A program made the position numbers and the translations under genes. From an uncultured Ignavibacteria bacterium (GTDB lineage Bacteria; Zixibacteria; MSB-5A5; SM23-73-2), in the NCBI GenBank assembly GCA_964447175.1, contig CAYURP010000002.1, forward strand, positions 937 to 64,936: a DNA stretch of 64,000 nt. Direction: 5' to 3'. The stretch's first letter is position 1; each line of letters opens with the position of its first letter. Below the pieces are notes generated by a model. The model worked only from the letters and a program-made list of their open reading frames with translations. It was not told where the DNA came from and searched no databases. Shown here one piece after another: positions 3,415-28,378 of the stretch.

Positions 3415-4890
3415 ATGAGAGCTCTGAGAATGTTGTTTTTTGTTGGGTTAGCTTTCATCTTTGTTTGCTCATCTTTGATTTATGCTGGTGTGCCCCAGAT
3501 GATTAATTATCAGGGGAAAATAACTACGCCTGCAGGGGCTTTAATAGATACAACTATCGGAATGATATTCACCATTTATGACGACAGCACTTCGGGTAAT
3601 ATCTTTTGGGCAGATACCTTAGGTTCAGTGTCGGTTGAAAAAGGTATGTTCAGCGTCCTGTTAGGGAGTGTGAATCCGATTCCGGACTCTGTTTTCGATG
3701 GAAATATCAGATATTTAGGTATCAAAGTGGGTGGCGATGCGGAGATGACTCCCAGGAAAGTTATTGCCAGCGTGGCTTATGCTTACCGGGCAGGCTCAGC
3801 AGATTTAAGTGCTCATAATCACTGGGGCGAAACCTGGGCTGGTGCAGACACAGGATTGATCCTTACCAGTACCGGCGTATCCAGAGACAACGGATCTGTT
3901 GGAGTCTCCGGTAGAGGCGTTAATTCAGGAGTGCATGGAAGTAGTAATACCGGCAGCGGTGTTTCCGGAAGTAGCCAGGATGGACGCGGGGTCAGTGGTT
4001 CCAGCAATAATGGCACCGGTGTCCAAGGAACTAGCCCCAATGGACAGGGAGTCGAAGGTGCAAGCACCTGGGGCACTGGGGTTTCAGGTACCAGCAACAA
4101 CGGCAATGGAGTGTCTGGTTCCAGCACTAACAGTAATGGAGTGCAAGGGTCCAGCGGTAGCAACACCGGCTCCGGAGTAAGAGGAACCAACAGCTCTCCT
4201 GAGGGAGATGGAGTGAGTGGCCAAGCTGATGGGGGTGACGGCGTTCATGGCGAAAGCAATACTGGTGATGGTGTCTCGGGTGGCAGCAATTCGGGGATTG
4301 GCGTTCACGGTGCAAGTGCTGAGGGCACCGGAGTTTCGGGTGAAAGCGTAAACGGCACAGGTGTTCATGCAAGCTCAGCCTTCGGAACCGCCCTGGTGGT
4401 TGATGGCTCCAGTATATTTAACTGTAACGCTCAGTTCAACTGTAATGTAACAGTCGCAGGAACTCTTGAGGTGAAAAAACTCACAGCATGGGAAATCGAC
4501 CCTATCATCCTTGAGTTATTCAAAGTAGACCCATCTCAGGTTTACCAAAAAGGAGATGTTCTGGTTATCGATCCTGAAAGTGATACTTACAAGCTTTGTG
4601 ATGCTGCAAACGACACAAAGGTTTCCGGTGTTGTCTGGAATGCAGACCCGAACGAGAATGGTGAGGTTCCAGTTGTGATTCTGGGAGCTAAGACTCCATC
4701 CAATACCGTTTACATAAAAGTAGATGTCAGCTATGCTACCATTCAGAGAGGTGATTTGCTAACATCATCTCCAACCCGAGGACATGCTATGAAGGCGACC
4801 GAGCCCAAGCCTGGATCCATAATAGGCAAGGCGCTTGAACCATTTAACTCAGGGAAAGGTCTTATAAAAGTCTTTGTCAACTTGCACTAA
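3415..4890 (+). CDS. secreted repeat protein: conserved N-terminal domain + ~15 Gly-rich decapeptide repeats (G-x-G-V-x-G-x-S-x-x) + C-terminal beta-rich domain
   Basis: 491 aa; signal peptide; RBS aaggag 6 nt upstream. The N-terminal ~110 aa are about 85% identical to the next gene. Residues 159-324 are a decapeptide array. Confidence 0.75.
   Translation: MRALRMLFFVGLAFIFVCSSLIYAGVPQMINYQGKITTPAGALIDTTIGMIFTIYDDSTSGNIFWADTLGSVSVEKGMFSVLLGSVNPIPDSVFDGNIRYLGIKVGGDAEMTPRKVIASVAYAYRAGSADLSAHNHWGETWAGADTGLILTSTGVSRDNGSVGVSGRGVNSGVHGSSNTGSGVSGSSQDGRGVSGSSNNGTGVQGTSPNGQGVEGASTWGTGVSGTSNNGNGVSGSSTNSNGVQGSSGSNTGSGVRGTNSSPEGDGVSGQADGGDGVHGESNTGDGVSGGSNSGIGVHGASAEGTGVSGESVNGTGVHASSAFGTALVVDGSSIFNCNAQFNCNVTVAGTLEVKKLTAWEIDPIILELFKVDPSQVYQKGDVLVIDPESDTYKLCDAANDTKVSGVVWNADPNENGEVPVVILGAKTPSNTVYIKVDVSYATIQRGDLLTSSPTRGHAMKATEPKPGSIIGKALEPFNSGKGLIKVFVNLH
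3889..4386 (+). repeat. intragenic tandem 30-nt (10-aa) Gly/Ser/Val repeat array
   Basis: SGVHGSSNTG / SGVSGSSQDG / RGVSGSSNNG ... about 15 units. It generates several spurious antisense ORFs. Confidence 0.85.
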
Positions 4891-4954
4891 GATACTACTA
4901 ATCAAAATGACCGTATGAGCCTATCAAGTTTAAAAAAACCAAAGGAGTAACATC

Positions 4955-6952
4955 ATGAGATGTAGAAGTGTAGTTTTTTGGATGATAGGAGTTTTAATAC
5001 TCCTACTTTGCTCTATTTCATCTGCTGGCGTGCCACAGATGATAAATTATCAGGGGAAGGTAACTACGCCCTCAGGTGCTTTAATAGATACGACTATCGG
5101 AATGATATTCACCATTTATGATGACAGCACTACGGGTAATACCCTGTGGGCAGATACCTTGAGTTCGGTTGCGGTTCAAAAAGGGATTTTCAACGTTTTG
5201 CTGGGCAGTGGAAATCCCATTCCCGATTCGGTTTTTGATGGCAATATTAGATATTTAGGTACCAAGGTGGGTAGCGATGCGGAGATGACTCCCAGGAAAG
5301 CGATGGTGAGTGTAGCTTATGCCTACCGTGCCGGAACTGCAGACGGAGGTGGCGGAGGAAGCTGTGGCTGGGTAGATGATGGTGTGGTTGTCAGGCTGGA
5401 GACCAACACAGATAATGTGGGAATCGGAACCACCAGTCCGGGAGCGAATCTGGACATCGTTTCCACAAATCCGAATCTTCGTGTGGGCACTTCATCTGGT
5501 TCCCCGGTTATTACTCTAGATAAAGCTTCAGGCTTTTGGGGATATCTGGAATTCAGAGATGCCGGAGCATCCAGGTGGCAAGCAGGCGTAACAAATAGCA
5601 ACGATTATTACATCCTGAACTGGCCATCTTCTAAATATGTTTTCTATGCCAATAGCGCAGGTAATGTGGGCATCGGAACCACCAGTCCCGATGAGAGATT
5701 ACATATTGTTGGAAACATCAAGATGGTTGATGGAAATCAAGCAGCAGGCTATATCTTGACTTCTGATGCAAATGGTGTGGGAACTTGGCAGGCAGCATCG
5801 GGTGGTATTGGTGGTAGTGGTGCAACTAATTATCTCCCGAAATTCACAGGCTCTACCACCCTTGGCAACTCTGTGTTCTACGAAAACGGAGGGAAAATAG
5901 GTCTTGGAACCACCAGCCCGGGTGCAGATCTGGACATTGTTTCCACAAATCCGAATCTCAGGCTGAGCACAACATCTGGTTCTCCAGTCATCACCCTGGA
6001 TAAAGCTTCTGGCTACACATCCATACTCGAATTCCGTGAGGGTGGAGCTTCCAAGTGGCAGGCGGGAGTATCGACTACCAACGATTATTACATCTTAAAC
6101 TGGCCTGCTTCCAAATATGTTTTCTTTGCTAACAGCGCAGGTGACGTTGGTATCGGGACCACCAGTCCAAGTGAGAAACTTACTGTTAATGGTGACATCG
6201 ATATGATACAGGGCCAATCACGGATTCACGGCACAGGAGAGATAAGTTTTGACTGGTCTGCAGGAAGTACCTACGACAATCCCAGTCTTCATGGTTTTGA
6301 ATCTAAAGATGAAGCAGGAACCTGGGGAGATGAAATCAGGATAAATAGTATGAATGATATAATCAACACGGTTGATGCAAATGATAATGACGCAACGTCT
6401 TATTTCAAGGTTCAACATCACTCAACCGGAGATGGTGAGGATCTTTTCTGGGTGCGTTCAAGTGATGGTTATGCATATCACAAAAGCAGGTTGGGAATAG
6501 GCACCACCAGTCCGGGAGTTGATCTGGACATCGTTTCCACAAACCCGAATCTCAGACTGAGCACCACATCTGGTTCCCCGGTTATTACTCTGGATAAAGC
6601 CACAGGCTTTTGGGGGTACCTGGAATTCCGAGATGCTGGATCATCCAAGTGGCAGGCGGGTGTAACAAGTGGTAACGATTATTACATCCTGAACTGGCCT
6701 GCTTCCAGATATGTTTTCTATGCTAATAGTGCTGGTAATGTAGGACTCGGAACCACAAGTCCCACCGGCCCGTTGGACGTTAATGGCAATGATATCCGTA
6801 TTCGCAGCTCCCAAACGCCGGCATCTTCTACAGCAGATGGTTACACAGGAGAGATTGCCTGGGATGCCAGCTACATTTATATTTGCACCTCTGGAGATGG
6901 TCCGGGCGGTGGAACAGATAGCTGGAAAAGAGCAGCTTTAAGTACATGGTAA
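4955..6952 (+). CDS. secreted repeat protein paralog: same N-terminal domain + three ~90-aa repeats (IGTTSP...LDIVSTNPNLR...DYYILNWP) + tail-fibre-like C-terminus
   Basis: 665 aa; signal peptide; RBS aaaggag. The C-terminus GEIAWDASYIYICTSG...SWKRAALSTW resembles the terminal motif of many bacterial and phage tail-fibre-domain proteins. This is recognition from memory, not a search. Confidence 0.75.
   Translation: MRCRSVVFWMIGVLILLLCSISSAGVPQMINYQGKVTTPSGALIDTTIGMIFTIYDDSTTGNTLWADTLSSVAVQKGIFNVLLGSGNPIPDSVFDGNIRYLGTKVGSDAEMTPRKAMVSVAYAYRAGTADGGGGGSCGWVDDGVVVRLETNTDNVGIGTTSPGANLDIVSTNPNLRVGTSSGSPVITLDKASGFWGYLEFRDAGASRWQAGVTNSNDYYILNWPSSKYVFYANSAGNVGIGTTSPDERLHIVGNIKMVDGNQAAGYILTSDANGVGTWQAASGGIGGSGATNYLPKFTGSTTLGNSVFYENGGKIGLGTTSPGADLDIVSTNPNLRLSTTSGSPVITLDKASGYTSILEFREGGASKWQAGVSTTNDYYILNWPASKYVFFANSAGDVGIGTTSPSEKLTVNGDIDMIQGQSRIHGTGEISFDWSAGSTYDNPSLHGFESKDEAGTWGDEIRINSMNDIINTVDANDNDATSYFKVQHHSTGDGEDLFWVRSSDGYAYHKSRLGIGTTSPGVDLDIVSTNPNLRLSTTSGSPVITLDKATGFWGYLEFRDAGSSKWQAGVTSGNDYYILNWPASRYVFYANSAGNVGLGTTSPTGPLDVNGNDIRIRSSQTPASSTADGYTGEIAWDASYIYICTSGDGPGGGTDSWKRAALSTW
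5420..6785 (+). repeat. three long intragenic direct repeats (~270-290 nt each; approx 5420-5700, 5900-6185, 6494-6785)
   Basis: Near-identical DNA stretches, e.g. ccaccagtccgggagcgaatctggacatcgtttccacaaatccgaatct recurring. Protein repeats start at aa 156, 316 and 514. Confidence 0.8.
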
Positions 6953-7070: not shown

Positions 7071-7525
7071 TGAACAGATTTAATATAATCAAATTGGCGG
7101 TGTTTTTCCTGGCGGTTTCTCTTTTGCTTTGCACAGGATTTTACGCTCAATCTTACTCCCAGAATTTCAAGTTGTTAACTGATGGTCTGGACAGCTTTGG
7201 TGGAAGATCATCATCCACAAATTTCTCCCTGAGAATAGGCTCAGGTGGTCAGCCGGGAGTTATCGGAACTTCCCAGGGTTCAAGTTTTTATGGACTTCAA
7301 GGCTATGTGAACACTGCGGCATTTGTGCACGGGGATGCTAACGCAGACGGGAACACAACCATCGCTGATGTGGTCTATCTGGTAAATTATCTTTTTAAAT
7401 CAGGTCCTGAACCAATCCCTCTGGAGACAGGGGATGTGAATGGCAACAATGAAGCCACTATAGCGGATGCGGTTTATCTGGTGAGCTATCTTTTCAGAGG
7501 AGGCAATCCACCGATTAATCTTTAG
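7071..7525 (+). CDS. small secreted protein with C-terminal type-I dockerin module
   Basis: Start chosen at the internal ATG with RBS ggagg. Signal-like N-terminus MNRFNIIKLAVFFLAVSLLLC. Two dockerin repeats, GDANADGNTTIADVVYLVNYLF and GDVNGNNEATIADAVYLVSYLF. Confidence 0.7.
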
Positions 7526-7611
7526 CATTTTACCATATTTTAAATGTCCAGAACCTAACTCAAGTTAGGTTCTGGCAAATCTAATTACTGTTTTGATTTC
7601 AGGAATGCGGT

Positions 7612-7648
7612 AGCCCACCTTGTCTTCAAGGTGGGCTTAGGTTTTTTT
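7612..7648 (+). terminator. rho-independent terminator (agcccacctt-gtcttc-aaggtgggct + T7)
   Basis: Perfect 10-bp stem followed by ttttttt. It is preceded by a second hairpin at 7549-7574 (cagaacctaact-caa-gttaggttctg). Confidence 0.6.
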
Positions 7649-7879
7649 GGATTGTGACCCTTCAGGTTCACCTGGTTTTCTAAAGAGTTGGAAGTCAAGC
7701 TGAAGCTTGACAATCCAATTCTTCGGGCGAAGACAGAGCTTCGCCCCCATGTTTTCTTACGACCACCTATAAATTCAAAATCTTTTGCTTGACAAAGTGT
7801 TATGATCTACCTATAATTCCTTAGGTTGATCCAGCATGGGTGGCTGTAACTTATTTACTTCTGCGTTTTTGTAAGTTCT

Positions 7880-10630
7880 TTGCAAATGAGAGCAATTTTT
7901 ACATACCTTAACATAGTCTTTCTTCTTCTGTTTTTTGCTATTGTAAATGAAAGGGGGAACCTGCAAGCTCAGGGGTGGGGAACTATCAAAGGCGAGGTTT
8001 CCAACTTTGAAAACGGTGAGCTGCTTTCCGGTGCCAACGTGCTGGTTCAAGGAACCAGGTATGCTACCTCAACAGATGAGAATGGGGTTTTCCTGATTAA
8101 ATTCGTTCCAGCTGGTAAATACACTCTGGAGGTCTCCTTAATAGGATACATTAAGGCACAACAAACGGACGTTGAAATTGAGAAAGACGAAACGGTCAAC
8201 CTTGTATTCCAGCTCAGGCCCACTGAAGTATTATTAAAGGAAAAAATCGAGGTAATTGGAAAGCGCCCCCTTATGGACATAAATGTTCCCGCCACCCGTA
8301 GGGACATAGGAAAAGAGGATCTCGAAAGGTTAATGGTCCATCGGATTGAGGATATTCTCAGCACACAAGCTGGTATTGTGGAGCAGGACCAACAAATCCA
8401 TATCCGGGGTTCCAGAACTTATGAGAGCCTTTATCTGATTGAAGGTATGGCTATAGAGGACCCTTTCTCCACCCGGGGGTTGGGGATTAATCTTTCACCT
8501 TCTGCCATTGAGGAGTTGAGCATCATCACTGGCGGGATTGAGGCTGAATATGGTCAGGTGACCTCAGGCGTAATAGACGTTAAAATAAGGGAGGGCGAGG
8601 ATAAATTGCACGGCTTGCTGACTTACAAAAGAGATCACTTTGGATGGAGCGCTCCCTATAACTTTAATACGGATATAGTTGATTTCAGCCTTTCCGGGCC
8701 CTTTTATAAACGTCTATACTTTTTCTGTAATGCCCAGACTTATCTCAGCGATACTTATTTTTCCTCAACTAACAAACTTTATTCATCCACTTTTGGGGGA
8801 AAGACTTTTGCCCCGCGAGAGGATAATCGTTTTTCCTTGATGGGGAAGCTCAGCTTAAGGTCTAATCCCCTGCGGACTTTGTCCTTCACCTTTGGCAAAT
8901 CAGTGGTGATAAACCAGGATAAAAGTATTTTAACCACCCGAATCAAAACTCCGATTTATAGTTATGGCTACCCCTACGAATATAAAAACATCCTAGAGAG
9001 CTATAACACCTTCACCCATGAGAGCGAGTTTCAGCTAATATCCTGGGAACAGAAAATCAGTTTGAACACATCCTATCAACTTAAACTTTCCCGTTTCTTT
9101 ACCAATCTTCATTCGGATGTGAATGGTAAGCACTGGTCAGAGTATACCATGCCGGAGGATTACCTGCCTCTGGAGATAAGCATAAGCCCGGATAGCACCC
9201 ATTACGTTGTTACTGCCGGGGACGGGTTTTACGATTGGGGGGATGGGGATACTTGGTATGATCATTTTATTGAAAGCTTTGCCTTAAAAGGGGATTTCTC
9301 CCATGTGTTCAGCGAATTCTATCAAATGAAAACGGGGATTTATCATCAATATCAGACAATTCAGCTTCTGGATATATACAAACCCTGGCTGGGTGAGACC
9401 GGCCTGGGCTTGAACTATGACCTGTACCGGGTTTTTGCCAGTGACGGTGCTTTTTTCTGGCAGAATGATTTCAATCTGGGAGATGCCTGGCTTAACCTGG
9501 GGATGAGGTATGATTACTGGTTCCCCGGAAAATATGTGGAAAGGGCGGTGGAGGATACGGATTTGACTTCAGAGGAGATTCGCAGGAAATTTAATCAGGA
9601 TACATTCGAATTTCTGGGATCAAAAGCCAAGGGAGTTCTCTCTCCCCGGGTAGGTTTTTCCACCTCTTTAGGAAAAAACCAGAGGTTTTTCTTTAACTAT
9701 TCCCAGCTTTCCAAAAAACCCAACCCTCAATATGTCTATGCCAAATTGTTTACCTCCACTGAGTCCACCTACCAGCTTTTCGGAAATCCTAATTTGAATC
9801 CGGAGAGGGTGATAACCTATGAGGTGGGTTTGAAATTTCTAATAACCTCACAGGACGCTTTAAGGATAGTGGGTTATTACAGGAACATCTATGATGCCAT
9901 AACAGCTGTGGGGGTGATACCTGAGGATGAGGGTGAAAATCCCTATCTGATGTATTTCAATCTGGATTTTGGTGCCTGCCGGGGAATTGAGCTCCAGTAC
10001 CTGAAAGAGGTGAGCAAAAAGCTCTTTTTGGGAGTGGAGCTTTCACTTTCCAAAGCCTCCGGTGAAAGGTCTTTACCCTCAGACGTTCTGATGGGCATCC
10101 CTGGTCGAGCCTATCAAGCCCTGTATCAGGAATATTATCTGGACTGGGATAAGCCCTGGCAAACCTCCTTTACTCTTAACTATTATGAGGATCTCAAAAG
10201 AAAGATTTTGGGGATAACTTTGCCTGCTAATTGGGAGTTTACCCTTCGGGGATGGGCTCAGGCTGGCAAAAGATACACACCCTTTGAGATGGTTGTTGAA
10301 GATACTGATACCTCTTTTGTTCAGGCGGGGATATTCAATGAGAAGATAGGCAAATATCTAAGCTCGGTGGATCTTAATTTCCAGAAGCATTTTCACTTCA
10401 GGTCATTTAAGTATAGCCTTTTCTGTGAGATAAACAACCTTTTCGATCGAAAAAATCCCACGGTTATAAATCCTTTGACCGGGGATGCATACCAGAAAGG
10501 GGATATCATACCCTATAGCATCGATAATCTGCTTTTGCCGGAATTTGGTTTAGACTTTCCTTTCTGGGAGGATCCAGCCAGGTATTCACCCCCCCGGAAC
10601 GTAAAATTGGGGATTGTATTAAGATGGTGA
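7880..10630 (+). CDS. TonB-dependent-receptor-like outer-membrane protein with N-terminal carboxypeptidase-regulatory-like (CarboxypepD_reg) domain
   Basis: 916 aa; signal peptide. GTIKGEV...GANVLVQG...TDENGVF...GKYTLEVSLIGY is the CarboxypepD_reg signature, followed by a plug-like region and a long beta-barrel ending in ...KLGIVLRW (aromatic C-terminus). Confidence 0.75.
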   Translation: MQMRAIFTYLNIVFLLLFFAIVNERGNLQAQGWGTIKGEVSNFENGELLSGANVLVQGTRYATSTDENGVFLIKFVPAGKYTLEVSLIGYIKAQQTDVEIEKDETVNLVFQLRPTEVLLKEKIEVIGKRPLMDINVPATRRDIGKEDLERLMVHRIEDILSTQAGIVEQDQQIHIRGSRTYESLYLIEGMAIEDPFSTRGLGINLSPSAIEELSIITGGIEAEYGQVTSGVIDVKIREGEDKLHGLLTYKRDHFGWSAPYNFNTDIVDFSLSGPFYKRLYFFCNAQTYLSDTYFSSTNKLYSSTFGGKTFAPREDNRFSLMGKLSLRSNPLRTLSFTFGKSVVINQDKSILTTRIKTPIYSYGYPYEYKNILESYNTFTHESEFQLISWEQKISLNTSYQLKLSRFFTNLHSDVNGKHWSEYTMPEDYLPLEISISPDSTHYVVTAGDGFYDWGDGDTWYDHFIESFALKGDFSHVFSEFYQMKTGIYHQYQTIQLLDIYKPWLGETGLGLNYDLYRVFASDGAFFWQNDFNLGDAWLNLGMRYDYWFPGKYVERAVEDTDLTSEEIRRKFNQDTFEFLGSKAKGVLSPRVGFSTSLGKNQRFFFNYSQLSKKPNPQYVYAKLFTSTESTYQLFGNPNLNPERVITYEVGLKFLITSQDALRIVGYYRNIYDAITAVGVIPEDEGENPYLMYFNLDFGACRGIELQYLKEVSKKLFLGVELSLSKASGERSLPSDVLMGIPGRAYQALYQEYYLDWDKPWQTSFTLNYYEDLKRKILGITLPANWEFTLRGWAQAGKRYTPFEMVVEDTDTSFVQAGIFNEKIGKYLSSVDLNFQKHFHFRSFKYSLFCEINNLFDRKNPTVINPLTGDAYQKGDIIPYSIDNLLLPEFGLDFPFWEDPARYSPPRNVKLGIVLRW

Positions 10631-11790
10631 TGAAGGGACTTCTAAAATTTATAGTTTTATTCGGATTGATAATTCTTTCCGTTCAATGTGGAAAGAAAAT
10701 AAAGCTCCCCACTTCCCTGCCCTATTCTCAGGATAAAACCCTGGATACCACCTACGTTCAGATAGGGCCGGTTTGGGAGGAAGCTGGAGGGGTGTCCTTT
10801 AATAAACCCGAGGATGTGCATATCGGATATGATACTTATATTTACATCGCGGATAGCGAAAACGACCGCATTGTTAAGATGGACCGCAGGGGGAAATTCG
10901 TGGATTCCTATCCGGTTCCCCATCCCATATCCATAACCCAGGATCCTTTGTTGAGATTGGCAGCAGTATCCGGGGATGATATAATCTATCTCAAGGATAT
11001 TTTCGAGGCAGAGCCATTTCATGAGGTTTTTGCTTTTGATCAGTGGATGGATACTTTAATATTTGAAGTGGATTCAGTATTTGTAATAGATTCCACTTAT
11101 TATCCGGACTCGCTGGACACTATACTCGTTGGAGTGGATACCCTGGAGGTTCTGGTTGATACGGTCAGCGTATCCCTAAAGGCTATTGCTGCCACTCCCA
11201 TACCGGATGAGCAATATAACTTTTTTACCTGCGACCAAACCTGGCACACTTATACCGGAATTGGAGGAGAAAAACACCAGAGAGATGAGATCTCAATGTT
11301 TGTTCCTAAATTTGAGGACACAGTTCTGGTTTTTCAATATGTTGATATCGCAGTACCAAGGGGTGGGGACTTAGGGAAAACCATAAGCCCAACCGGGATT
11401 TTCACCTATCCCTATAAGAACCACTTTCGGATAGCCTTCTGTCAAGGGTATCCGACTAACAGTGCTCAAATACTAAATGGTGAAAACTTCTATCCGGTGA
11501 TTCCCAGAACGGATTTCACCGAAATATATTTTCCGGGGATGTTTGGAGTAGCTGAGGATATCACCGTGGACGAATTTGGTAATATCTACGTGGTGGATGC
11601 TTCCCGACACTCGGTTTTAAAGTTCAACCCCAAGGGGAGACTTCTTCTAAAATTTGGCTCCCTTGGTTCAGGAAACAAAGAATTCAACAGACCCAAAGGA
11701 ATAGCATACTATAACCAGACCTTATATGTGGCAGATACTGAAAACAACCGCATTCTGAGATTCCAGTTATCCACCGACGTAAGGAAATAA
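10624..11790 (+). CDS. NHL-repeat beta-propeller protein, probable lipoprotein or secreted
   Basis: 388 aa; signal peptide ending LSVQCG. NHL-type repeats ADSENDRIVKMD and ADTENNRILRF. A 7-nt overlap with the upstream OMP gene suggests an operon. Confidence 0.55.
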   Translation: MVMKGLLKFIVLFGLIILSVQCGKKIKLPTSLPYSQDKTLDTTYVQIGPVWEEAGGVSFNKPEDVHIGYDTYIYIADSENDRIVKMDRRGKFVDSYPVPHPISITQDPLLRLAAVSGDDIIYLKDIFEAEPFHEVFAFDQWMDTLIFEVDSVFVIDSTYYPDSLDTILVGVDTLEVLVDTVSVSLKAIAATPIPDEQYNFFTCDQTWHTYTGIGGEKHQRDEISMFVPKFEDTVLVFQYVDIAVPRGGDLGKTISPTGIFTYPYKNHFRIAFCQGYPTNSAQILNGENFYPVIPRTDFTEIYFPGMFGVAEDITVDEFGNIYVVDASRHSVLKFNPKGRLLLKFGSLGSGNKEFNRPKGIAYYNQTLYVADTENNRILRFQLSTDVRK

Positions 11791-11958
11791 TCCCAAGTCA
11801 AAGCTTAAAAAATATCCATAAAAACAAAATGGACTTCATTCTGTTTGAACTTTAATCTTTATAGAATATACCGAAACAGTTAAAGGAATTTGTTCGATTG
11901 GAAATTCTGGAAAAATCACTTGTTATTGATTAAAATGTAATTTATATTAAAAAGGAAT

Positions 11959-12043
11959 TGCCGAAGTGGTGGAACTGGGAGACACGCTACGTTCAGGGCG
12001 TAGTGCTCGTAAGGGCATGGGGGTTCAAATCCCCCCTTCGGCA
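11959..12043 (+). tRNA. tRNA-Leu (anticodon CAG), class II with long variable arm
   Basis: Acceptor GCCGAAG/CTTCGGC+A. The D-arm GTGGTGGAACTGGGAGACAC resembles E. coli tRNA-Leu. Anticodon loop tt-CAG-gg. T-arm GGGGGTTCAAATCCCCC. Length 85 nt. Confidence 0.9.
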
Positions 12044-12366
12044 TTTTTAACATAAAAGAGGAAGGAGTTATTCTAATAAGCCATTCCAGAAGAATTCTTT
12101 TAATTTCTTGTAAATTGCGAATTACATTAGGATTAAGTATCAGTTGACAAATAGGCAGTTTTTTGACAGATCTCCCCAATTAGAGTGAATCTTTGAGATA
12201 AAAGAGGAAGTGGTATCTTACCATTTTAGACTTGACTTTTGGGGAAAAATACGTAATTTATAGTAGAAGTAGGGGAATAAGTCTGAAGATGAACATTTAT
12301 ACCATAAGGAAAATGTTTTTTAGTTTTTAACTTAAATTTTGATATTCAGAGAGGAGGAGAGAGGAG

Positions 12367-13788
12367 ATGAAAAGCAAGACTATCATCACGATGGCGATAT
12401 CCTTGATTTTATTTGCTTTTTTAGCAACAACCTGGGCCGGAACGGATCAGGATCTGCAAGAGATAAGAAAAGCAATTAAGGAGAAAGGGGCAAAATGGGA
12501 GGCAGGCGATAACTGGGTTTTTCGTCTTTCCAAAGAGGAGAGGAAAAATCTAATGGGGGACCTCCCGGTAAAATATCTTCCCGCAAAGATCCCACAACCT
12601 TTATCTGGACTTTCGTTGCCCGACAGTTTTGACTGGCGAAGCTACAATGGATACAACTGGACCACCTCCATCAAGAATCAACTAACTTGTGGGAATTGCT
12701 GGGCTCATGCCTCCTGCGGTGCATTAGAGACGGTGGTTAAAATCACTTTAAATGAACCCAATCTATCAAATACATCCATCGACCTCTCAGAGTTGTATAT
12801 GACTTCTTGCAGTGGCAGGGGATGTGAACTGGGCTGGGATCAATCCAGCAGCCTTCAGTTTATAAAGGTTAATGGTGTCCCGGATCAAGTATGCTTCCCG
12901 GGTAATCTCCCTCCAGCTCCCTGTGGAGATACCTGTTCTAATAAATACAATAGATCTATATTCATAGAGGATTGGTATTATTATGGATCTGGGGTGTCTG
13001 TGGATTCAAATGATGTTAATGCCATAAAGGATAGGATATATAATCATGGTCCGGTTACGGTTCATTTTCTCGTTTACGAAGATTTTGGCGGTTATCAATC
13101 GGGGGTTTACGAGCACACTTGGGGTGATCCTGAAGACTGGCATGCGGTGAGCATGGTGGGATGGAATGATGTGGATAGCTGCTGGATCTGTAAAAATAGC
13201 TGGGGGCCAGATTGGGGTGATGACGGCTGGTTCAGGATAAGAATGATTCATGCTGGAGTTCATATAGAAGAGGAATGCTGGTATATGACGGTGGATTCCG
13301 CCTCCATCCCTCGGATTACAGTTACCTCACCTGTTGACGGAGATAAGTGGATGATGGGAACCCAGCATGACATCAAATGGATATCACCTTATTTTAGTGG
13401 ATATGTTAGAATCGATTATTCCACCAATGGCGGTTCGGACTGGGATAATATTACTGAGAGCACCTTAGACGATGGCAGCTTCAACTGGGTCAATATCCCG
13501 GACATCCCTTCGAGTAACTGTAAGCTTAAGATCTCCGATGCCAGCGATGGGATTCCCTGGGTCTTAAGTCGGGGAGCATTTTTTATCGTAACTTTGGGAG
13601 ATGTAAATGCTGATGGGGGTGTGGGCATAGCAGATGTGGTATATTTGGTGAACTATGTCTTGCGTAGCGGACCTGAGCCTTATATTATGGAAACCGGCGA
13701 TGTAAACTGCGACTGGTTAGTGAATATGAATGATATAGTCTTTCTGGTCAACTATATTTTAAGAAGTGGTCCTAAGCCGGAATGTTAA
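12367..13788 (+). CDS. papain-family (C1) cysteine protease with C-terminal dockerin module
   Basis: 473 aa; signal peptide; strong RBS ggaggag. Active-site Cys motif QLTCGNCWAHASCGALE, His region HAVSMVGWND and Asn/Trp region NSWGPDWGDDGWFRI. The C-terminus has two dockerin repeats, GDVNADGGVGIADVVYLVNYVL and GDVNCDWLVNMNDIVFLVNYIL. Confidence 0.85.
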   Translation: MKSKTIITMAISLILFAFLATTWAGTDQDLQEIRKAIKEKGAKWEAGDNWVFRLSKEERKNLMGDLPVKYLPAKIPQPLSGLSLPDSFDWRSYNGYNWTTSIKNQLTCGNCWAHASCGALETVVKITLNEPNLSNTSIDLSELYMTSCSGRGCELGWDQSSSLQFIKVNGVPDQVCFPGNLPPAPCGDTCSNKYNRSIFIEDWYYYGSGVSVDSNDVNAIKDRIYNHGPVTVHFLVYEDFGGYQSGVYEHTWGDPEDWHAVSMVGWNDVDSCWICKNSWGPDWGDDGWFRIRMIHAGVHIEEECWYMTVDSASIPRITVTSPVDGDKWMMGTQHDIKWISPYFSGYVRIDYSTNGGSDWDNITESTLDDGSFNWVNIPDIPSSNCKLKISDASDGIPWVLSRGAFFIVTLGDVNADGGVGIADVVYLVNYVLRSGPEPYIMETGDVNCDWLVNMNDIVFLVNYILRSGPKPEC

Positions 13789-17980: not shown

Positions 17981-20653
17981 TTGTTAATCCAAAAGAGATA
18001 CAGAGAAATTTTCATCTTTGCTTTTATAATGATTTTCTGGGCGTCCTGGGTGTGGGGCGGAACCTCAGGCAAGATATCCGGTACCCTGAGAGATAAAATC
18101 ACAGGAGAACCCTTGCCCGGTGCAACCATTATGATTTTGGGAACCAATATCGGTACCTCAACGGATGAAGATGGTGATTATTTTCTGATAAATATCCCCC
18201 CGGGCAACTATACTATTCAAGCAACTTTAATCGGATATGAGCCCGTTGTTCAAAAAGAGGTTAAAGTCCTTTTGGATCTGACCACTCCGGTGGATTTCAA
18301 ATTGATGTCCTCTCCCATTGAACTGGTCGAGGGTATAACGGTGATAGCTGAACGTCCGATGATTCAGAAGGATTTAACCTATTCCGGGAACATAGTGACC
18401 CGGGAGGAGTTAAATAACCTTCCTAATGCAGTAAACCTGCAGCAGGTGGTCTCCAATATGGCTGGAACGGTGGTGGACGAAGCTGGTTTGTTACATGTCC
18501 GGGGAGGCCGGGATGGAACGGTCAGCTATTTTCTGGACGGGGTAAATGTTCAGGATCCTTTTGTGGGGCAAGCTGGCACCCGGATTACCCCGGATGCCAT
18601 AGAGGAGCTGGATGTCACTACCGGAGGCTTCACTGCTGAGTATGGGGAGGCGCTCTCAGGAGTGGTAAGCGCAGTTACAAAGCGAGGAACCAACCTCTAT
18701 CAAGGAAAGATCAAAGCCTACGATGGCGCCACTCGCTCCTACGATGTTCACAACGGAAGTTTCAAAGATCTTGCCCGAAACGATAACCAATCGGTGATCT
18801 TAAACTTGGGAGGTCCTTTGACCTTCACCAACACTGATAGAGCCACGTTCTTTTTAACCAGTGAATATCTGAGAGACAAGGGCTACCTGCCTCATAACCA
18901 GGTGGAACTTTATTCCCATACTGGAAAGATAACCTTAAAACCCACCAATGATATCATAATCCTTCTTACCGGAAACTATTATCAGAGGGATCGACAGCGA
19001 TACCAACACCGGGACGGGAATAACTTCTCTTATGATTTCAACCTGGAGGGTCTGGGTAACTACCAAAATAAAGCCTATCATTATGGAGCTAAAATTACTT
19101 ATCCCGCTTCCCAAAACACCATATACACTATTAAGTTCAACCATTTCTTCACTGAAACCAAGCTTGCGCCAGAGCATCTCTTTGACCTGTACTGGAATCA
19201 GTGGCCTGGTTATTCGGTGGACTCCAATGGGGTTTACAATGGGACCATTCATACTCAAAACTACAACGTGGATCCAGAGTATTTTAACACCGGTTTCACT
19301 AAGGCTCCAGATTACTTCCCGGTCTATCATTATCGCAGGACCCAGTATAACAGCTTTGGTCTGGATTTGATCTCCCAGATAGATAAATATAATCAGATAA
19401 AATTAGGTTGGGAATACAGAGCCAACAGGCTCAAATGGGATGACAAACAATTCTTCAATATCAGACCGTACGGGGAACGCTATGTGGTCAATCCTGCGTA
19501 TGCAGCTCTGTATGTGCAGGATAAAATCGAGTTCCGGGAGATAATTTTAAATGCAGGCTTAAGATTGGATTATATGGATGCGGACATCGATTTCTGGAAT
19601 GATCCGGTGAAAAAAAATGAAAAAATACACACCAAGTCCAAAACTCAACTTTCACCTCGTCTGGGAATTTCGCATCCCATTTCTGATCTAACGGTTATTC
19701 ATTTCAACTACGGATATTACTTCCAGGTACCTCAGTATATGTATATGTTCACCAATTTGCAGGCTGATTTAAGCACCGGATATCCTCTGGTGGGCAATCC
19801 CAATATGGAGGTGGAAAAAACGGTTGCCTATGAGATGGGAATAAGCCATATGCTTAATCCAAACATCAGATTGAAGTTAACTGCCTATTATAAGGATCTG
19901 GGCAATCTGGCTACCACCCGAGAGGTGGTTTATGCTGGTGGTTCCTACACTCAGTACACAAATGCTGATTATGGATCAGTTAAAGGATTTGATTTGGTCC
20001 TGACTAAAATTGCCAGTGACCATCTCTCCGGAGGCATAAATTATACCTATTCCATAGCTAAGGGGAATGCTTCTTCAGTAACCGAGGGTTACTATGATTA
20101 TTTCACACAGGGAACGGAAGCTCCGGTCTGGCCGGTAAAAGAATATCCCCTCTCCTTTGATCAAAGGCACACTCTCTCGGCTGACATTGATTATCGAGTT
20201 CCCCGGGACTGGAAGGGTAAGTTTTTAGGTCTGACTATGCCCGGCGCCTGGGGAGTTAATGTGTTAACTCAATACGGAAGCGGATTACCTTATACCAAAA
20301 CCGATGACCAGGGGCATAGAGTTGGAATGCTAAACGAGGGTAGACTGCCCCCCACCTACCGGGTGGACCTGAAATTCAACAAGGATTTCTATTTCCTCAA
20401 GGATAGTGATCTTCATCTCACATTTTTCACCGAGGTGGAGAATCTATTTGATAGAAGTAATATCATTGATGTTTACCCTAATACCGGAAAACCGGATGAT
20501 GATGGAAGATATTATGAGCTGACTTCTGATCCGGATGGAGACGGACCTTTAACCCCTGAGGATGTGAATTGCTATTATAGGCTGTTGGCTAAGGATCCTC
20601 AGAACTACGACTCTCCCAGAAGGATCAGATGGGGATTTGAATTTGTGTTTTAA
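17981..20653 (+). CDS. TonB-dependent-receptor-like outer-membrane protein with CarboxypepD_reg N-domain (paralog of 7880-10630)
   Basis: 890 aa. TTG start with RBS ggagggtg. GKISGTLRDKITGEPLPGATIMILGTNIGTSTDEDGDYFLINIPPGNYTIQATLIGY is CarboxypepD_reg. Plug and barrel follow, ending ...RWGFEFVF. Confidence 0.75.
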   Translation: MLIQKRYREIFIFAFIMIFWASWVWGGTSGKISGTLRDKITGEPLPGATIMILGTNIGTSTDEDGDYFLINIPPGNYTIQATLIGYEPVVQKEVKVLLDLTTPVDFKLMSSPIELVEGITVIAERPMIQKDLTYSGNIVTREELNNLPNAVNLQQVVSNMAGTVVDEAGLLHVRGGRDGTVSYFLDGVNVQDPFVGQAGTRITPDAIEELDVTTGGFTAEYGEALSGVVSAVTKRGTNLYQGKIKAYDGATRSYDVHNGSFKDLARNDNQSVILNLGGPLTFTNTDRATFFLTSEYLRDKGYLPHNQVELYSHTGKITLKPTNDIIILLTGNYYQRDRQRYQHRDGNNFSYDFNLEGLGNYQNKAYHYGAKITYPASQNTIYTIKFNHFFTETKLAPEHLFDLYWNQWPGYSVDSNGVYNGTIHTQNYNVDPEYFNTGFTKAPDYFPVYHYRRTQYNSFGLDLISQIDKYNQIKLGWEYRANRLKWDDKQFFNIRPYGERYVVNPAYAALYVQDKIEFREIILNAGLRLDYMDADIDFWNDPVKKNEKIHTKSKTQLSPRLGISHPISDLTVIHFNYGYYFQVPQYMYMFTNLQADLSTGYPLVGNPNMEVEKTVAYEMGISHMLNPNIRLKLTAYYKDLGNLATTREVVYAGGSYTQYTNADYGSVKGFDLVLTKIASDHLSGGINYTYSIAKGNASSVTEGYYDYFTQGTEAPVWPVKEYPLSFDQRHTLSADIDYRVPRDWKGKFLGLTMPGAWGVNVLTQYGSGLPYTKTDDQGHRVGMLNEGRLPPTYRVDLKFNKDFYFLKDSDLHLTFFTEVENLFDRSNIIDVYPNTGKPDDDGRYYELTSDPDGDGPLTPEDVNCYYRLLAKDPQNYDSPRRIRWGFEFVF

Positions 20654-20687: not shown

Positions 20688-23357
20688 ATGTTTCAAAGAA
20701 AATCTATTGGCTTCTGGATTTATTCCTGGGGTTTTTTGATCTCCCTAATTCTTTTTAGCAGCAGCGGATTGTCCAAAACTACCTCTTCTTTGATTCCTCC
20801 GTCTGAGATTCAGGACCAGATCATTCAGAACAAGGGTAATATCGCAACCACAATTCAGAATTGGGGTCAGATCGGAGGACAGAGCCATCTGGGCAAACCC
20901 TCAGGGGAGTGGCCTAAGGGATCGGGTCATAACTACCTGGCAGAGATCAAATACTGGATGGGTGCCATCAAGCTCAGCGGCGATACGGTGGTAGCTAATA
21001 CCGAAGACGATTTCATGCCTATTGCTATGCCTCTCTTTGGAGAGGAGAGCTACAAGATCCGTCTTTCCACCGACCCCTCAACCTACGATTATGATTCATA
21101 TGATACGGTGGGTTTGGGAATTGGCAAACCCTCCTATGGGTGGAAAGTATGGGATTTGGAGAAGGACTCCTGGGAGTATAACAAGGTCTGGAACTTATCC
21201 TCGGGTCAATTTGAAGGAGCTGGTCCAATTTCCTTACAGGAAAGCCACTACCGGTTTAATGATGCTAATAGCGGCATAAGTGTTTTGGATTTGGAGATGA
21301 CTCAGACTATTTATCAGTGGAACTACAGCTACAACCAGGATTTTCTATTCGTGGTATTAGAGATCAAAAACAACAGTTCCGATAATTACTCTGATTTTGC
21401 TTTTGGTCTTTACTGCGATTTCGATGTGGGGGGGTATCATCCACCTACCGGGGAAAACGGGAGATTGGGTGATCTGGTGGAATTTGATTCTGCTTTGAAT
21501 TTGGCTTGGACCTATGATCAGGATGGTTATGATCCTGGTTGGGGACCCCTGGTAAAGACCGGAATGATGGGGACCAAATATATAGAGACGCCGGACAATA
21601 TCGGAATGACTGCCTTCAGAACCGGCCAATGGGAATATCTGCCGGATGATGATCCGGGGAAATATGAATATATTAATAGCCAGCAATTCGATCAGAGTTT
21701 ACCCCCCACAGACCAATACTATATTCAATGCACTCGGGGGATAGATTTGAGGTCCGGCAAAACAGTACGAGTGGTTTTTGCGCTTATTGCTGGTTATGAT
21801 GAGAAGGATTTAAAGGATAAAGCCAATATGGCTCAAACGGTATATGAGAACTATTTTATCGGTCCGGAACCACCCAAGCCATCTAATCTGGTCGCTACGC
21901 CGGGGAATGGTTTGGTAAAGCTCCTGTGGGACGATGTTTCTGAAAATTCGGTGGATCCTCTAAGCGGGATTGTAGATTTTAGGGGTTATAAGATCTATAG
22001 AAGCACAGATATGGGTTTGACCTGGGGAGATTTGGTGAAAAATCCAGATGGGAGCCTGGGTCCGGATTACATACCCATTGCAATGTTTCAGAAGGAAAAT
22101 GAGGAGGACATCCTACCGCATACCTATATCGACAGAAACCTGACCAATGGGATAGAATGCTGGTATACGGTGGTGGCTTTTGACGGGGGTGACACCACGG
22201 TTCCCATAGAGCCTTTACAGAATGCTTATGGTCGACCGGGTGAAGATCCCAACTGCCAGTTCGCCATACCTCGTACTGATCCTGCTGGATATTATCCCAT
22301 AGACGTAACTGTGGATCACAACTATTATGGATTGGAGAGCAAAAGCGATGGATGGGTAGTGCCAATGGTTTTCGATCAGGGCGCTTTGACGGGACACGAT
22401 TATAAAGTTACCTTTTCCGAGGATTATCTATCTACCTACTGGCATTTGATTGATATTTCCAACAGTGATACGGTTTTAAAAGCACAGACCGAACAGTCCG
22501 GTGATACGGTGAAATACCAGGTGGTGGATGGAATCCAGGTGATCGTCACCAACGGTCTTAAGGATCCCAGCTACTACTACCAGACTGAGTTTGCCACCGG
22601 ATCAGATACCACCTTACATATGGGATATATGTATGGGTCGATGGGAGAGACTTTTGGATTTCCTACGGGCGGAGACATCCATTTTCGCTCCACCTACGAA
22701 TTCAGATTCACCGCGGAAGGCTCTCAGGGGTTCAGCTTTCACGATGGTGTTACTCCCGTTGATCTCCCCTTTGAAGTCTGGAACGTAACCTTGGAGCAAA
22801 AGGTTTTTGCTGAGATTTATGATCGAGGAGATGGGGTATGGGACCCGGATAAGAAAGATTATATAATTATCGTTAACTATCCGTATGATGGAGAACCACA
22901 TCCCGAAGCTTTTCCCTTTTATGACGTTTGGTTCTTCAGATTCGACACCACGGATACCCAATATTCAACAGGCGATGTTTTCAGAGTTGGGGGGGCATCA
23001 CTCAATTCCCCGGATGATGAATTTTTCTTCAGTTCTCCAGGGATAGACGACAGACAAGCAAGAAGGGAACTGGCTAATGTTAAGGTTGTACCTAATCCCT
23101 ATATCGCCCGTGCCGATTGGGAAACCACAGACGGGATGAGGAAGATTCAATTCACCCATCTGCCCGATATCTGCACCATAAGAATTTACACCTTAGCCGG
23201 GGATCTAGTTCAGACCCTTATACATGATAATGGTTCTGGATCAGAAGATTGGGATCTTTTATCCGAAAATCAACAGGGAATAAGCTCAGGAGTCTATTTC
23301 TATCACGTTTCATCAAAATATGGTGAAAAGATCGGCAAATTCGCTATTATCAAATAA
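20688..23357 (+). CDS. large secreted protein with FN3-like domain and T9SS type-A C-terminal sorting domain (CTD)
   Basis: 889 aa; signal peptide. The C-terminal ~85 aa, VKVVPNPYIAR...CTIRIYTLAGDLVQTL...ISSGVYFYHVSSKYGEKIGKFAIIK, match the Por_Secre_tail pattern (VYPNP...IxIYdxxGxLV...SGvYFy...KfxiiK). Confidence 0.65.
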   Translation: MFQRKSIGFWIYSWGFLISLILFSSSGLSKTTSSLIPPSEIQDQIIQNKGNIATTIQNWGQIGGQSHLGKPSGEWPKGSGHNYLAEIKYWMGAIKLSGDTVVANTEDDFMPIAMPLFGEESYKIRLSTDPSTYDYDSYDTVGLGIGKPSYGWKVWDLEKDSWEYNKVWNLSSGQFEGAGPISLQESHYRFNDANSGISVLDLEMTQTIYQWNYSYNQDFLFVVLEIKNNSSDNYSDFAFGLYCDFDVGGYHPPTGENGRLGDLVEFDSALNLAWTYDQDGYDPGWGPLVKTGMMGTKYIETPDNIGMTAFRTGQWEYLPDDDPGKYEYINSQQFDQSLPPTDQYYIQCTRGIDLRSGKTVRVVFALIAGYDEKDLKDKANMAQTVYENYFIGPEPPKPSNLVATPGNGLVKLLWDDVSENSVDPLSGIVDFRGYKIYRSTDMGLTWGDLVKNPDGSLGPDYIPIAMFQKENEEDILPHTYIDRNLTNGIECWYTVVAFDGGDTTVPIEPLQNAYGRPGEDPNCQFAIPRTDPAGYYPIDVTVDHNYYGLESKSDGWVVPMVFDQGALTGHDYKVTFSEDYLSTYWHLIDISNSDTVLKAQTEQSGDTVKYQVVDGIQVIVTNGLKDPSYYYQTEFATGSDTTLHMGYMYGSMGETFGFPTGGDIHFRSTYEFRFTAEGSQGFSFHDGVTPVDLPFEVWNVTLEQKVFAEIYDRGDGVWDPDKKDYIIIVNYPYDGEPHPEAFPFYDVWFFRFDTTDTQYSTGDVFRVGGASLNSPDDEFFFSSPGIDDRQARRELANVKVVPNPYIARADWETTDGMRKIQFTHLPDICTIRIYTLAGDLVQTLIHDNGSGSEDWDLLSENQQGISSGVYFYHVSSKYGEKIGKFAIIK

Positions 23358-23378
23358 CCTTAAAAAAGGGAGAAAAAA

Positions 23379-24389
23379 ATGGCTAAGAGAATTCTACTAA
23401 CTTTAATCATTCTGACTCTGGTGCTGAGCCACTCCGGCGTGGCAGAGGAATTCTCCAAGGTGGGGAGTGTGGGAGCGCAGTTTTTGAAAATAGGCGTGGG
23501 TGCAAAGTATGTGGGAATGGGTGAAGCATCGGTGGCTTGCGTGAATGATGCCTATGCTATGTACTGGAACCCAGCCGGTCTGACTCAGCTTTCCCAGAAT
23601 AATCTACGCTTCACCAATGTGGATTGGATAGATGATGTCCAGCTGAATTATGTGTCTTTTGGTAAACCCTGGGGCAGCTCCTCTGCCTGGGGAATCAGTA
23701 TGACCGTTCTGACCATGGGGGATATGGAAGTTACCACGGTGCAGGAACCAGAAGGGACTGGCGAGAAGTTCTCCGCCTCGGATTACTCGATAGCTTTAGG
23801 TTATGCCAGAAAACTTACAGATAGATTTTCTCTGGGACTGAGTTTCAAATACCTGTGGGAGAGGATCTCAGAGGAATCTGCATCCGGATTTGCTTTTGAT
23901 TTCGGGACTCTGTTTTTCACCGGCATTCAGAATTTAAGGATGGGTATGAACATCTCCAATTTGGGCCCGGAGATGAAATTAGATGGACCGGAGCTGGATG
24001 TGTTTTATACCCCCTATCCCGAGAACACCAACTATGATGGGGTGAAAAGCAAGCTGGCTGTGGAACCCTATGATCTGCCGCTAACTTTTAGAGTGGGATT
24101 GGCATATGATCTTTACCCATCGGCTGATTCCAGGCTCACTCTATCCAGCGAAGCCAAACATCCCAATGATAACCTGCAGCAGGTGAGCTTTGGCGGAGAA
24201 TGGGTTTGGAAGGAAATGGTGTCCTTGAGAACCGGATATAAGCTGAACTATGAGGAAGAGGGTTTAACCTTAGGGGGTGGATTGAAGCTGAAAACCGGAG
24301 AAAGAACCACCCTGGAGCTGAACTATGCCTGGGCTGATTTCAACCGGCTACAGAGCGTTCATCGCTTTTCTGTGGGTTTTGACTTTTAA
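23379..24389 (+). CDS. PorV/PorQ-family-like outer-membrane beta-barrel (T9SS shuttle-like)
   Basis: 336 aa; signal peptide. The N-terminal GAQFLKIGVGAKYVGMGEASVACVNDAYAMYWNPAGL motif (GxxxLGMG...ayaiYWNPAGL) is characteristic of the PorV/PorQ/UPF0164 barrel family. It has alternating amphipathic strands and a C-terminal F. It is adjacent to a CTD-bearing cargo gene. Confidence 0.55.
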   Translation: MAKRILLTLIILTLVLSHSGVAEEFSKVGSVGAQFLKIGVGAKYVGMGEASVACVNDAYAMYWNPAGLTQLSQNNLRFTNVDWIDDVQLNYVSFGKPWGSSSAWGISMTVLTMGDMEVTTVQEPEGTGEKFSASDYSIALGYARKLTDRFSLGLSFKYLWERISEESASGFAFDFGTLFFTGIQNLRMGMNISNLGPEMKLDGPELDVFYTPYPENTNYDGVKSKLAVEPYDLPLTFRVGLAYDLYPSADSRLTLSSEAKHPNDNLQQVSFGGEWVWKEMVSLRTGYKLNYEEEGLTLGGGLKLKTGERTTLELNYAWADFNRLQSVHRFSVGFDF

Positions 24390-28377: not shown

Positions 28378-28378
28378 T

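Follow-up and report, generated by a model that had tools for sequence, protein, structure and literature searches.

What holds a secreted protease that ends in a dockerin, when the bacterium that makes it shows no sign of a cellulosome? This question is raised by a stretch of 64,000 nucleotides, called the window here, from contig CAYURP010000002.1 (positions 937 to 64,936, forward strand) of an uncultured bacterium of the Zixibacteria, in which a small secreted protein and a papain-family protease both carry a C-terminal dockerin module. Zixibacteria, none of them in culture, are plentiful in sediments and aquifers. Several window proteins have their closest named relatives in metagenome-assembled genomes (MAGs) of Candidatus Zixiibacteriota. 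The window lies on a 114-kb NCBI contig, and matching fragments also occur in JGI sample 3300031698 and Logan run SRR9700688. The cell is Gram-negative. Among the window's products are TonB-dependent receptor-like proteins, OmpH, a member of the PorV family and a protein with a sorting domain of the type IX secretion system (T9SS). No relevant paper joining Zixibacteria with a dockerin or a cellulosome was found in the literature searched. The dockerins probably serve as C-terminal tags that dock secreted proteins, in a Ca2+-dependent manner, onto T9SS-anchored cohesins. A dockerin on the protease is in itself not surprising, and NCBI already labels such proteins dockerin-containing; the fibre-linked small dockerin protein is the less expected result and the part worth pursuing.

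Two type I-like dockerins and the proteins that carry them

Both modules are genuine type I-like dockerins. They exceed the gathering score of Pfam Dockerin_1 (PF00404; 22.9 bits), the small protein with 32.3 bits (E 1.2e-7, residues 122-176 of a 186-residue open reading frame, ORF) and the protease with 33.6 bits (E 4.4e-8, residues 410-465), and Pfam reported no other family on the dockerin segments. Each module consists of two 22-residue repeats, GDANADGNTTIADVVYLVNYLF and GDVNGNNEATIADAVYLVSYLF in the small protein and GDVNADGGVGIADVVYLVNYVL and GDVNCDWLVNMNDIVFLVNYIL in the protease, in which a loop with D1, N3, D/N5 and D12 is followed by a helix (I/V)xD(V/A/I)V(Y/F)LV(N/S)Y. All four repeats match the tandem EF-hand-like pattern of loop plus helix, and the loop starts are 33 residues apart in both modules. 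A search of the window in all six frames turned up no further dockerin motif. The two modules share 35 of 67 residues (52%) and 114 of 201 nucleotides (57%), so they are old copies and no recent duplicates.

The fold was examined with an AlphaFold (AF2) model of the small protein built from an alignment of 92 homologues. Over residues 85-150, which comprise the dockerin, the predicted local distance difference test (pLDDT) is 91-98. In a Foldseek search of the PDB with this dockerin, ranks 1-29 are all solved dockerins from cohesin-dockerin complexes, with target-normalised TM-scores of 0.44-0.84 (at least 0.6 in 27 of the 29) and root-mean-square deviations that mostly lie at 1.6-2.8 A. A parvalbumin, the highest-ranked match to a different class of EF-hand protein, stands at rank 31 with a probability of 0.02. 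For the protease the three-helix dockerin fold comes from a model of lower confidence (mean pLDDT 57, from a 19-sequence alignment), whose dockerin part reaches pLDDT 73-90 and has the three expected helices at residues 421-432, 441-444 and 454-465. This model was too poor for a fold search of the catalytic and middle domains, and sequence evidence was used for these instead.

The Ca2+ ligands are equally well kept. D89, D100 and D133 of the small-protein dockerin have no substitution in the 92 homologues, and positions 1 and 12 of both loops are unchanged across 19 protease orthologues. Over 174 dockerin domains of this subtype, D1, N3, D5 and D12 are conserved in 95%, 83%, 89% and 98% in repeat 1 and in 91%, 82%, 83% and 97% in repeat 2, and the helix face is almost invariant. 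It is thus very improbable that the motif is some other EF-hand-like repeat, such as thrombospondin type 3 or a calmodulin-like one, despite the general likeness of the Ca2+ loop to EF-hand loops, because Dockerin_1 is matched above its cut-off and dockerins alone are found among the structural matches; a chance match is excluded by the Pfam E-values, the conservation of the ligands in orthologues and the AlphaFold model. The original prediction had described a duplicated 22-residue dockerin at the end of both proteins, in old paralogous copies that are similar in protein sequence and not identical in DNA. Both statements are borne out, with the quoted motifs present, and the other EF-hand family that it had named as a possible refutation was looked for and not found.

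These modules resemble clostridial and ruminococcal type I dockerins (for example Doc48S of Clostridium thermocellum) in their length of about 65 residues, their two Ca2+ loop/helix repeats and the 33-residue loop spacing, and the predicted fold superposes on solved dockerins, mostly at 1.6-2.8 A among the best matches. The consensus of the Zixibacteria subtype is GDANGDGxVxVxDVVYLINYLFKxGPxP, occurring twice and often with a Cys at loop position 4 and a C-terminal Cys. At the recognition positions 10 and 11 it has V/I followed by G/S/A, whereas C. thermocellum dockerins have Ser-Thr. In contrast to cellulosomal dockerins, many copies have two Cys residues by which the repeat could be stapled. 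Over the 174 domains, position 4 of the second loop is Cys in 60% and a C-terminal Cys is present in 68%; in the 19 protease orthologues both (Cys448 and Cys473, encoded within 13696-13785 of the window) are fixed. They may form a disulfide staple particular to this subtype. In some dockerin copies the corresponding pair sits in repeat 1.

The small protein belongs to a tight family of about 100 clusters (at 90% identity), nearly all of 150-152 amino acids (aa) and 55-94% identical to the window protein. Its gene starts at 7070, one nucleotide before the 7071 given earlier, and NCBI annotates a product of 151 aa (P0121); the longer start at 6965, which would give the 186-aa ORF, is absent from the NCBI record. 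The protease falls in the papain family (C1A, PF00112), with a Pfam score above the cut-off and the Gln-Cys-His-Asn set of papain. About 20 orthologues are known (44-78% identical, 458-476 aa, mostly annotated as C1 plus dockerin), and Q105, C111, H259 and N277 occur without exception in 19 of them. Among solved structures, cathepsin C and cathepsin B come closest in sequence (E 1e-35 to 1e-24). With its catalytic residues invariant and these cathepsins closest, the protease is very probably active as an enzyme.

A widespread tag and its candidate cohesin partners

The dockerin subtype is strongly expanded in the Zixibacteria lineage. One genome per bacterial species was scanned with the small-protein alignment and the patterns D[VA]VY[LIE][IV]NYx[FL] and VY[LK][VI][NI]YLF[KR], and more than 544 matching stretches were confirmed. 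Of the 80 best stretches, most belong to Zixibacteria MAGs and several to MAGs labelled Ignavibacteria, with a best match to the window of 64%. Zixibacteria genomes hold multiple dockerin loci, for example at least seven on the closed chromosome OY970208.1. When 1.34 Mb of loci around dockerin matches were searched with a local hidden Markov model (HMM), 170 dockerin ORFs were obtained; in 162 of these, no more than 15 residues separate the end of the module from the C-terminus. A Pfam census of 159 dockerin proteins (Dockerin_1 143, SBBP 14, Peptidase_C25 12, FG-GAP 11, Peptidase_C1 9, Beta_helix 8, He_PIG 8, Peptidase_S8 5, Peptidase_M6 5, Peptidase_M1 5, Peptidase_M14 3, Peptidase_C10 2) contains at least 41 peptidases (at least 26%), the gingipain-like C25 being the commonest peptidase domain. 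Peptidases, beta-propellers, FG-GAP repeats and beta-helices recur as cargo, and there is no glycoside hydrolase among the families with two or more members. In this dockerin-centred sample, the subtype proves to be a tag of general use, carried by secreted proteases and by adhesin-like proteins.

Cohesins were sought by running an iterated local search over these loci, with a Pfam check (cut-off 24.1 bits) afterwards. A three-sequence cohesin profile from related C1 proteases had returned only 3 proteins in a large homology search; the iterated search gave 19 cohesin-like ORFs across 12 other loci of several genomes. Pfam Cohesin exceeds its cut-off in 4 of the 10 ORFs checked, and every one of the four has a T9SS sorting domain (Por_Secre_tail; Table 1). 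By local HMMs, the 19 ORFs end in a T9SS C-terminal sorting domain (CTD) in 7 cases, in a dockerin in 9 and in neither in 3. Dockerin and CTD are nearly mutually exclusive as tags, and the sole ORF with both reads cohesin-dockerin-cohesin-CTD by local HMMs (cohesin-dockerin-CTD by Pfam). The presence of T9SS-fused cohesins in other Zixibacteria genomes makes the docking of secreted enzymes and adhesins the likely function of the dockerins.

Several further cohesin-like proteins were observed. Four relatives of the C1 protease (P0047, P0268, P0033 and P0062) have a cohesin and a dockerin-like segment in a single polypeptide, and among them are proteins whose dockerin repeats are Cys-rich and proteins that end in a T9SS sorting domain; judged by their architecture, enzymes of this type could both dock and be docked onto. 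More distant C1 proteases (KSB1, Marinimicrobia, WOR-3) have a T9SS CTD at the site of the Zixibacteria dockerin, and a few have a cohesin. Beside a dockerin gene in two Zixibacteria genomes lie near-identical secreted proteins of 192 aa (L024:10398-10973 and L036:583-1158, both minus strand), with about 87 bits on the iterated cohesin profile and no Pfam match, which may be a divergent family of stand-alone cohesins.

Evidence that the window genome has a T9SS comes from its PorV-family and CTD-bearing genes. The PorV/PorQ protein scores 235 bits with NCBIfam PorV_fam (cut-off 90). The 889-aa protein encoded before it reaches 20.9 with Por_Secre_tail, against a cut-off of 23, is also matched by the local CTD HMM, and has a homologue that NCBI names a T9SS sorting-domain protein. 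These two genes are preceded by a second TonB-dependent receptor-like gene (17981-24389 for all three, plus strand), in an order kept in relatives. Farther on, a cluster resembling type IV pilus and type II secretion systems (25520-36201, plus strand) encodes two N-methyl pilin-like proteins, PilN, a secretin, an AAA_22 ATPase, a TPR protein, a T2SSE ATPase with a MshEN domain, and T2SSF. Candidate routes of the dockerin proteins across the outer membrane are this pilus-like cluster and co-export with cohesin-CTD carriers.

In the mechanism that we propose, one dockerin subtype is appended to secreted peptidases (C25, C1, S8, M6, M1, M14, C10) and adhesin-like repeat proteins. The T9SS would export the cohesin proteins and fix them to the outer membrane via the C-terminal sorting domain, and the dockerin-tagged, Sec-exported proteins would plug into these cohesins in the presence of Ca2+, with cohesin-dockerin proteins acting as adaptors. 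The C1A protease would thereby be held at the cell surface instead of diffusing away, and the dockerin of the small protein would tie something, most plausibly a fibre base, to the same anchors. Binding, a cohesin in this genome, the outer-membrane route and the fibre tethering are all steps that we infer.

Several observations weigh against this docking mechanism. Pfam found no cohesin among the window ORFs of at least 150 aa, and the iterated cohesin HMM, run at E<10, matched neither the window nor about 190 kb of loci from its nearest relatives. Four window ORFs without annotation (3415-4890, 20688-23357, 40068-41926 and 52514-53761) were checked for a hidden cohesin, again with no match at E<10. 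In the genomes with Pfam-verified cohesins, the small-protein orthologues are merely 35-49% identical to that of the window, so these genomes are distant members of the phylum. The two dockerin proteins have Sec signal peptides and no T9SS sorting domain (by Por_Secre_tail or TIGR04183, in Pfam, NCBIfam and local HMM searches), which leaves their passage across the outer membrane unexplained. Finally, the loci were picked by their dockerins, which biases both the dockerin-to-cohesin ratios and the cargo census.

What else could the modules be? They might be orphan dockerins in a genome lacking cohesins, acting as Ca-stabilised C-terminal domains that bind lipopolysaccharide, polysaccharide, one another or a different protein (the fibre base, for instance), or that simply make their carrier proteins more stable. 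Although the cohesin-free window and relatives' loci, and the 170 dockerin ORFs against 19 cohesin-like ORFs, suit such a reading, we think it rather unlikely. The sample is biased towards dockerins, and in cellulosomal bacteria too dockerins are far more numerous than cohesins. Moreover, at 12 loci in several genomes the same dockerin subtype has cohesin-CTD and cohesin-dockerin proteins no more than 10 kb away, and its helix face varies extremely little from one protein or genome to the next, which fits a common protein partner. Alternatively, the dockerin could be an export or sorting signal that replaces the T9SS CTD, and not an assembly module. Its nearly constant place at the extreme C-terminus, the cargo classes typical of T9SS substrates (C25, C10, M6, S8), the homologous proteases of other phyla with a T9SS CTD at the same position, and the rarity of dockerin and CTD together all agree with this idea. 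It is nevertheless improbable, as the module has the three-helix dockerin fold instead of the beta-sandwich of T9SS signals, and as an internal dockerin is followed by a CTD in L054:3154-4944, P0273, P0295 and P0305, an arrangement which shows that dockerin and CTD have different tasks.

A true cellulosome acting on plant polysaccharides can be given hardly any credence. It is suggested by the Pfam family name and a weak NCBIfam match to the dockerin end of CelK, which are its sole support. The 64-kb window has no carbohydrate-active enzyme (CAZyme), no carbohydrate-binding module (CBM) and no scaffoldin, and no gene combining multiple cohesins with cellulose binding; the cohesin proteins of relatives have one or two cohesins and no reported CBM. 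The dockerins do not sit mainly on carbohydrate-active enzymes, since no glycoside-hydrolase family recurs among the 159 dockerin proteins, and the host is Gram-negative with T9SS anchoring. The original prediction had suggested a cohesin scaffold or cell-surface display for proteolysis, to be checked by a genome search for cohesins, or else decoy or anchoring modules in a non-cellulosomal lineage. At the level of the phylum the display finds support in the cohesin-T9SS proteins, Pfam-verified in other Zixibacteria genomes, and in the peptidase share of the cargo; in the window and the roughly 190 kb of relatives' loci the search came back empty. The lineage is indeed non-cellulosomal, and no evidence was found for decoys.

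The fibre cassette and the small dockerin protein

Directly before the small dockerin gene lie two fibre-like genes. An N-terminal domain is common to both (300 nt at 84% identity, 3483-3782 versus 5023-5322); the C-terminal parts are unrelated, and three internal 272-nt repeats occur in the second gene (4955-6952). The pair looks like a tip-swapping adhesin cassette. NCBIfam Bdello_MAT_N (NF053851) matches the two fibres with 27.8 and 26.9 bits (E 2e-6 and 4e-6). All 19 related fibre proteins examined match as well at E<=1e-3 (best 5e-11), none reaching the 60-bit cut-off, and one relative carries an S74 chaperone domain, a typical element of such fibres. As judged by these scores, the fibre N-terminal domain is homologous to that of the mosaic adhesive trimer (MAT) fibres of Bdellovibrio, yet not a member of the family by NCBI's 60-bit criterion. 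In all 13 loci with upstream DNA, a fibre gene stands directly upstream of the small dockerin gene on the same strand. The cassettes hold one to three fibre genes each, with very different C-terminal parts, and are also found in the cohesin genomes JAUYBY01 (L012, L085) and OY970208.1 (L066; partial in L020 and L054).

The Gly/Ser-rich N-module of the small protein has a pLDDT below 50, though it is strongly conserved among homologues, a pairing that suits a segment which takes up its fold on a partner. When 1.84 billion representative proteins were searched with an N-module profile, 56 proteins were found. The module lies just behind the signal peptide in nearly all of these, apart from P0270 and P0321, which are very large and hold multiple copies. 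Larger proteins with the N-module combine it with a dockerin and a T9SS CTD, with a cohesin, a dockerin and a CTD, or with Ig-like domains. P0270 (4385 aa) has 17 matches to profile positions 19-45, the central N-module, which indicates that the Gly-rich GGQP core can form a long tandem repeat.

As the last gene of the fibre cassette in all 13 loci, the small protein may tether fibres to the surface. A tentative proposal, possible and by no means the probable outcome, is that the 151-aa protein is the missing surface tether of MAT-like fibres. Its N-module, disordered alone, would co-fold with the trimeric fibres at their invariant N-terminal base, and its dockerin would plug into T9SS-anchored cohesins, so that interchangeable fibres with different tips would all be mounted on one universal socket. 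A small gene directly behind a fibre gene could also encode an assembly chaperone or a tip factor, as after many phage tail-fibre genes, and a conserved N-module that is not confidently folded alone would suit that role as well. We consider this unlikely, since the small protein has a signal peptide and a dockerin, and the fusions of its N-module to cohesin, dockerin, T9SS and Ig-like domains suit a surface-anchored component. The repeated fusion to surface-anchoring devices favours a tether or adaptor over a transient chaperone.

Organisation of the locus and related systems

The two dockerin genes had been presented as one system spanning 7071-13788. This has to be given up, because a terminator, a promoter and a tRNA gene divide the region into three transcription units (Table 1); the small gene belongs to the upstream fibre cassette. 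In relatives at 64-66% identity, the order of receptor, NHL-repeat and protease genes is kept with a fibre gene upstream, and not the small dockerin gene, while in a relative at 49% identity the protease lies in another neighbourhood. On a 194-kb JGI contig, the orthologues of the protease and the small protein are about 90 kb apart. The original prediction is thus right in kind; it joins two unrelated genes, and the partner in this genome is still one that we infer. A protein-utilisation locus comprising the TonB receptor, the NHL-repeat protein and the protease was also considered and rejected, given the tRNA, the separate promoter and terminator signals, and synteny in close relatives only.

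Table 1. Features of the window (positions 1 to 64,000) and Pfam-verified cohesin proteins at other loci.
Feature	Position	Strand	Basis
Two fibre-like genes, 491 aa (3415-4890) and 665 aa (4955-6952)	3415..6952	+	Bdello_MAT_N matches
Small secreted dockerin protein, gene, 151 aa	7070..7525	+	ORF list, NCBI product of same length
Small protein, signal peptide	aa 1-26		
Small protein, Gly/Ser-rich conserved N-module	aa 27-86, 7148-7327		
Small protein, dockerin module, two 22-residue Ca-loop/helix repeats	aa 88-151, 7331-7522	+	Pfam, AF2, Foldseek
Terminator-like hairpin, 11-bp stem and T run, after small dockerin gene	7612..7637	+	
Perfect sigma-70 consensus TTGACA-17-TATAAT, before TonB-dependent receptor-like gene	7789..7817	+	
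TonB-dependent receptor-like outer-membrane protein (916 aa) and NHL-repeat beta-propeller (388 aa), no dockerin	7880..11790	+	Pfam
tRNA-Leu(CAG) gene in the 577-nt gap between NHL-repeat and protease genes	11959..12044	+	
Secreted C1A protease with C-terminal dockerin, gene, 473 aa	12367..13788	+	Pfam, orthologue architecture
Protease, signal peptide	aa 1-24		
Protease, pro-region	aa 25-83		
Protease, Peptidase_C1 domain	aa 84-306, 12616-13284	+	Pfam 139 bits
Protease, beta-sandwich domain	aa ~315-405		
Protease, dockerin module	aa 411-473, 13597-13785	+	Pfam Dockerin_1, orthologue alignment, AF2
T9SS-related pair: 889-aa protein with type A sorting domain (20688-23357), then PorV/PorQ-family protein	20688..24389	+	
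Cohesin and T9SS sorting domain (OY970208.1, Zixibacteria)	L054:1073-2692		Pfam 41.9 bits; two cohesin-like modules by local search
Cohesin and T9SS sorting domain (JAUYBY01, Zixibacteria)	L034:3177-6740		Pfam 62.9 bits
Cohesin and T9SS sorting domain	L031:850-3225		Pfam 36.8 bits
Cohesin, dockerin and T9SS sorting domain	L054:3154-4944		Pfam 43.3 bits

Some other features of the window were noted. An 87-aa minus-strand ORF (11916-12179) overlaps the tRNA-Leu(CAG) gene and is probably spurious. A 794-aa ORF (46082-48466, minus strand) has the unusual fusion of a weak Peptidase_M50-like region with HlyD-type membrane-fusion domains. Several ORFs of 150-415 aa, at 40068-41926 (minus strand), 52514-53761 (plus strand) and 60941-61399 (plus strand), are without a Pfam match at E<=0.001.

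Compared with clostridial and ruminococcal cellulosomes, the Zixibacteria system belongs to a Gram-negative host, its cargo consists of peptidases and adhesin-like proteins instead of CAZymes, and its candidate anchors are T9SS sorting domains, not S-layer homology domains or sortase. Dockerin-borne peptidases are known from Ruminococcus flavefaciens (PMC2930009). In the Cloacimonadota, Williams et al. inferred for 'Ca. Stygibacter' a cellulosome-like complex with a role in polypeptide degradation (Williams et al., 2021; PMC8542988). There, enzymes with signal peptides, including S8 and C25 peptidases, carry C-terminal dockerins, and a cohesin scaffoldin is anchored by a CTD (PMC8542988). The likeness is close, as both are uncultured candidate phyla with dockerin peptidases and a cohesin protein whose C-terminal domain would attach it to their own surface. 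The Zixibacteria differ in phylum and in their cargo, here a C1A protease and a fibre-linked small protein, and their cohesin proteins are small, with one or two cohesins, whereas the scaffoldin of Ca. Stygibacter has 3,755 aa and CBMs.

The proposed outcome, a secreted cysteine protease at the outer-membrane surface, is the same as for the T9SS-anchored, gingipain-type proteases of Bacteroidota. Attachment here would, in contrast, be non-covalent and indirect, through dockerin, cohesin and CTD, the window proteins themselves being without a CTD. As for the fibres, a conserved N-terminal domain with variable C-terminal parts is found in the MAT fibres of Bdellovibrio and likewise in those of Zixibacteria, some relatives having S74. 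The Zixibacteria fibres differ in that their host is no known predator, that a dedicated small dockerin protein follows them, and that their scores lie below the family cut-off. In the Bdellovibrio study, the invariant N-terminal domain was presumed to bind a surface element whose identity was left open (Caulton et al., 2024; PMC10769870).

If the docking mechanism is true, Zixibacteria would load their outer surface with proteases and adhesins by means of a cohesin-dockerin plug and a T9SS-fixed socket. A protein-scavenging lifestyle would fit, and the in silico idea put forward for the Cloacimonadota would be extended to a second candidate phylum. The question that it raises is how dockerin proteins lacking a T9SS signal get across the outer membrane, possibly by a separate pathway or as hitch-hikers on carriers with cohesin and CTD. 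For the mounting of MAT-type fibres on cells, the association of fibres with the small dockerin protein provides a testable candidate, and if the tether is true it would tell, in Zixibacteria at least, by which surface element the base of a MAT fibre is held.

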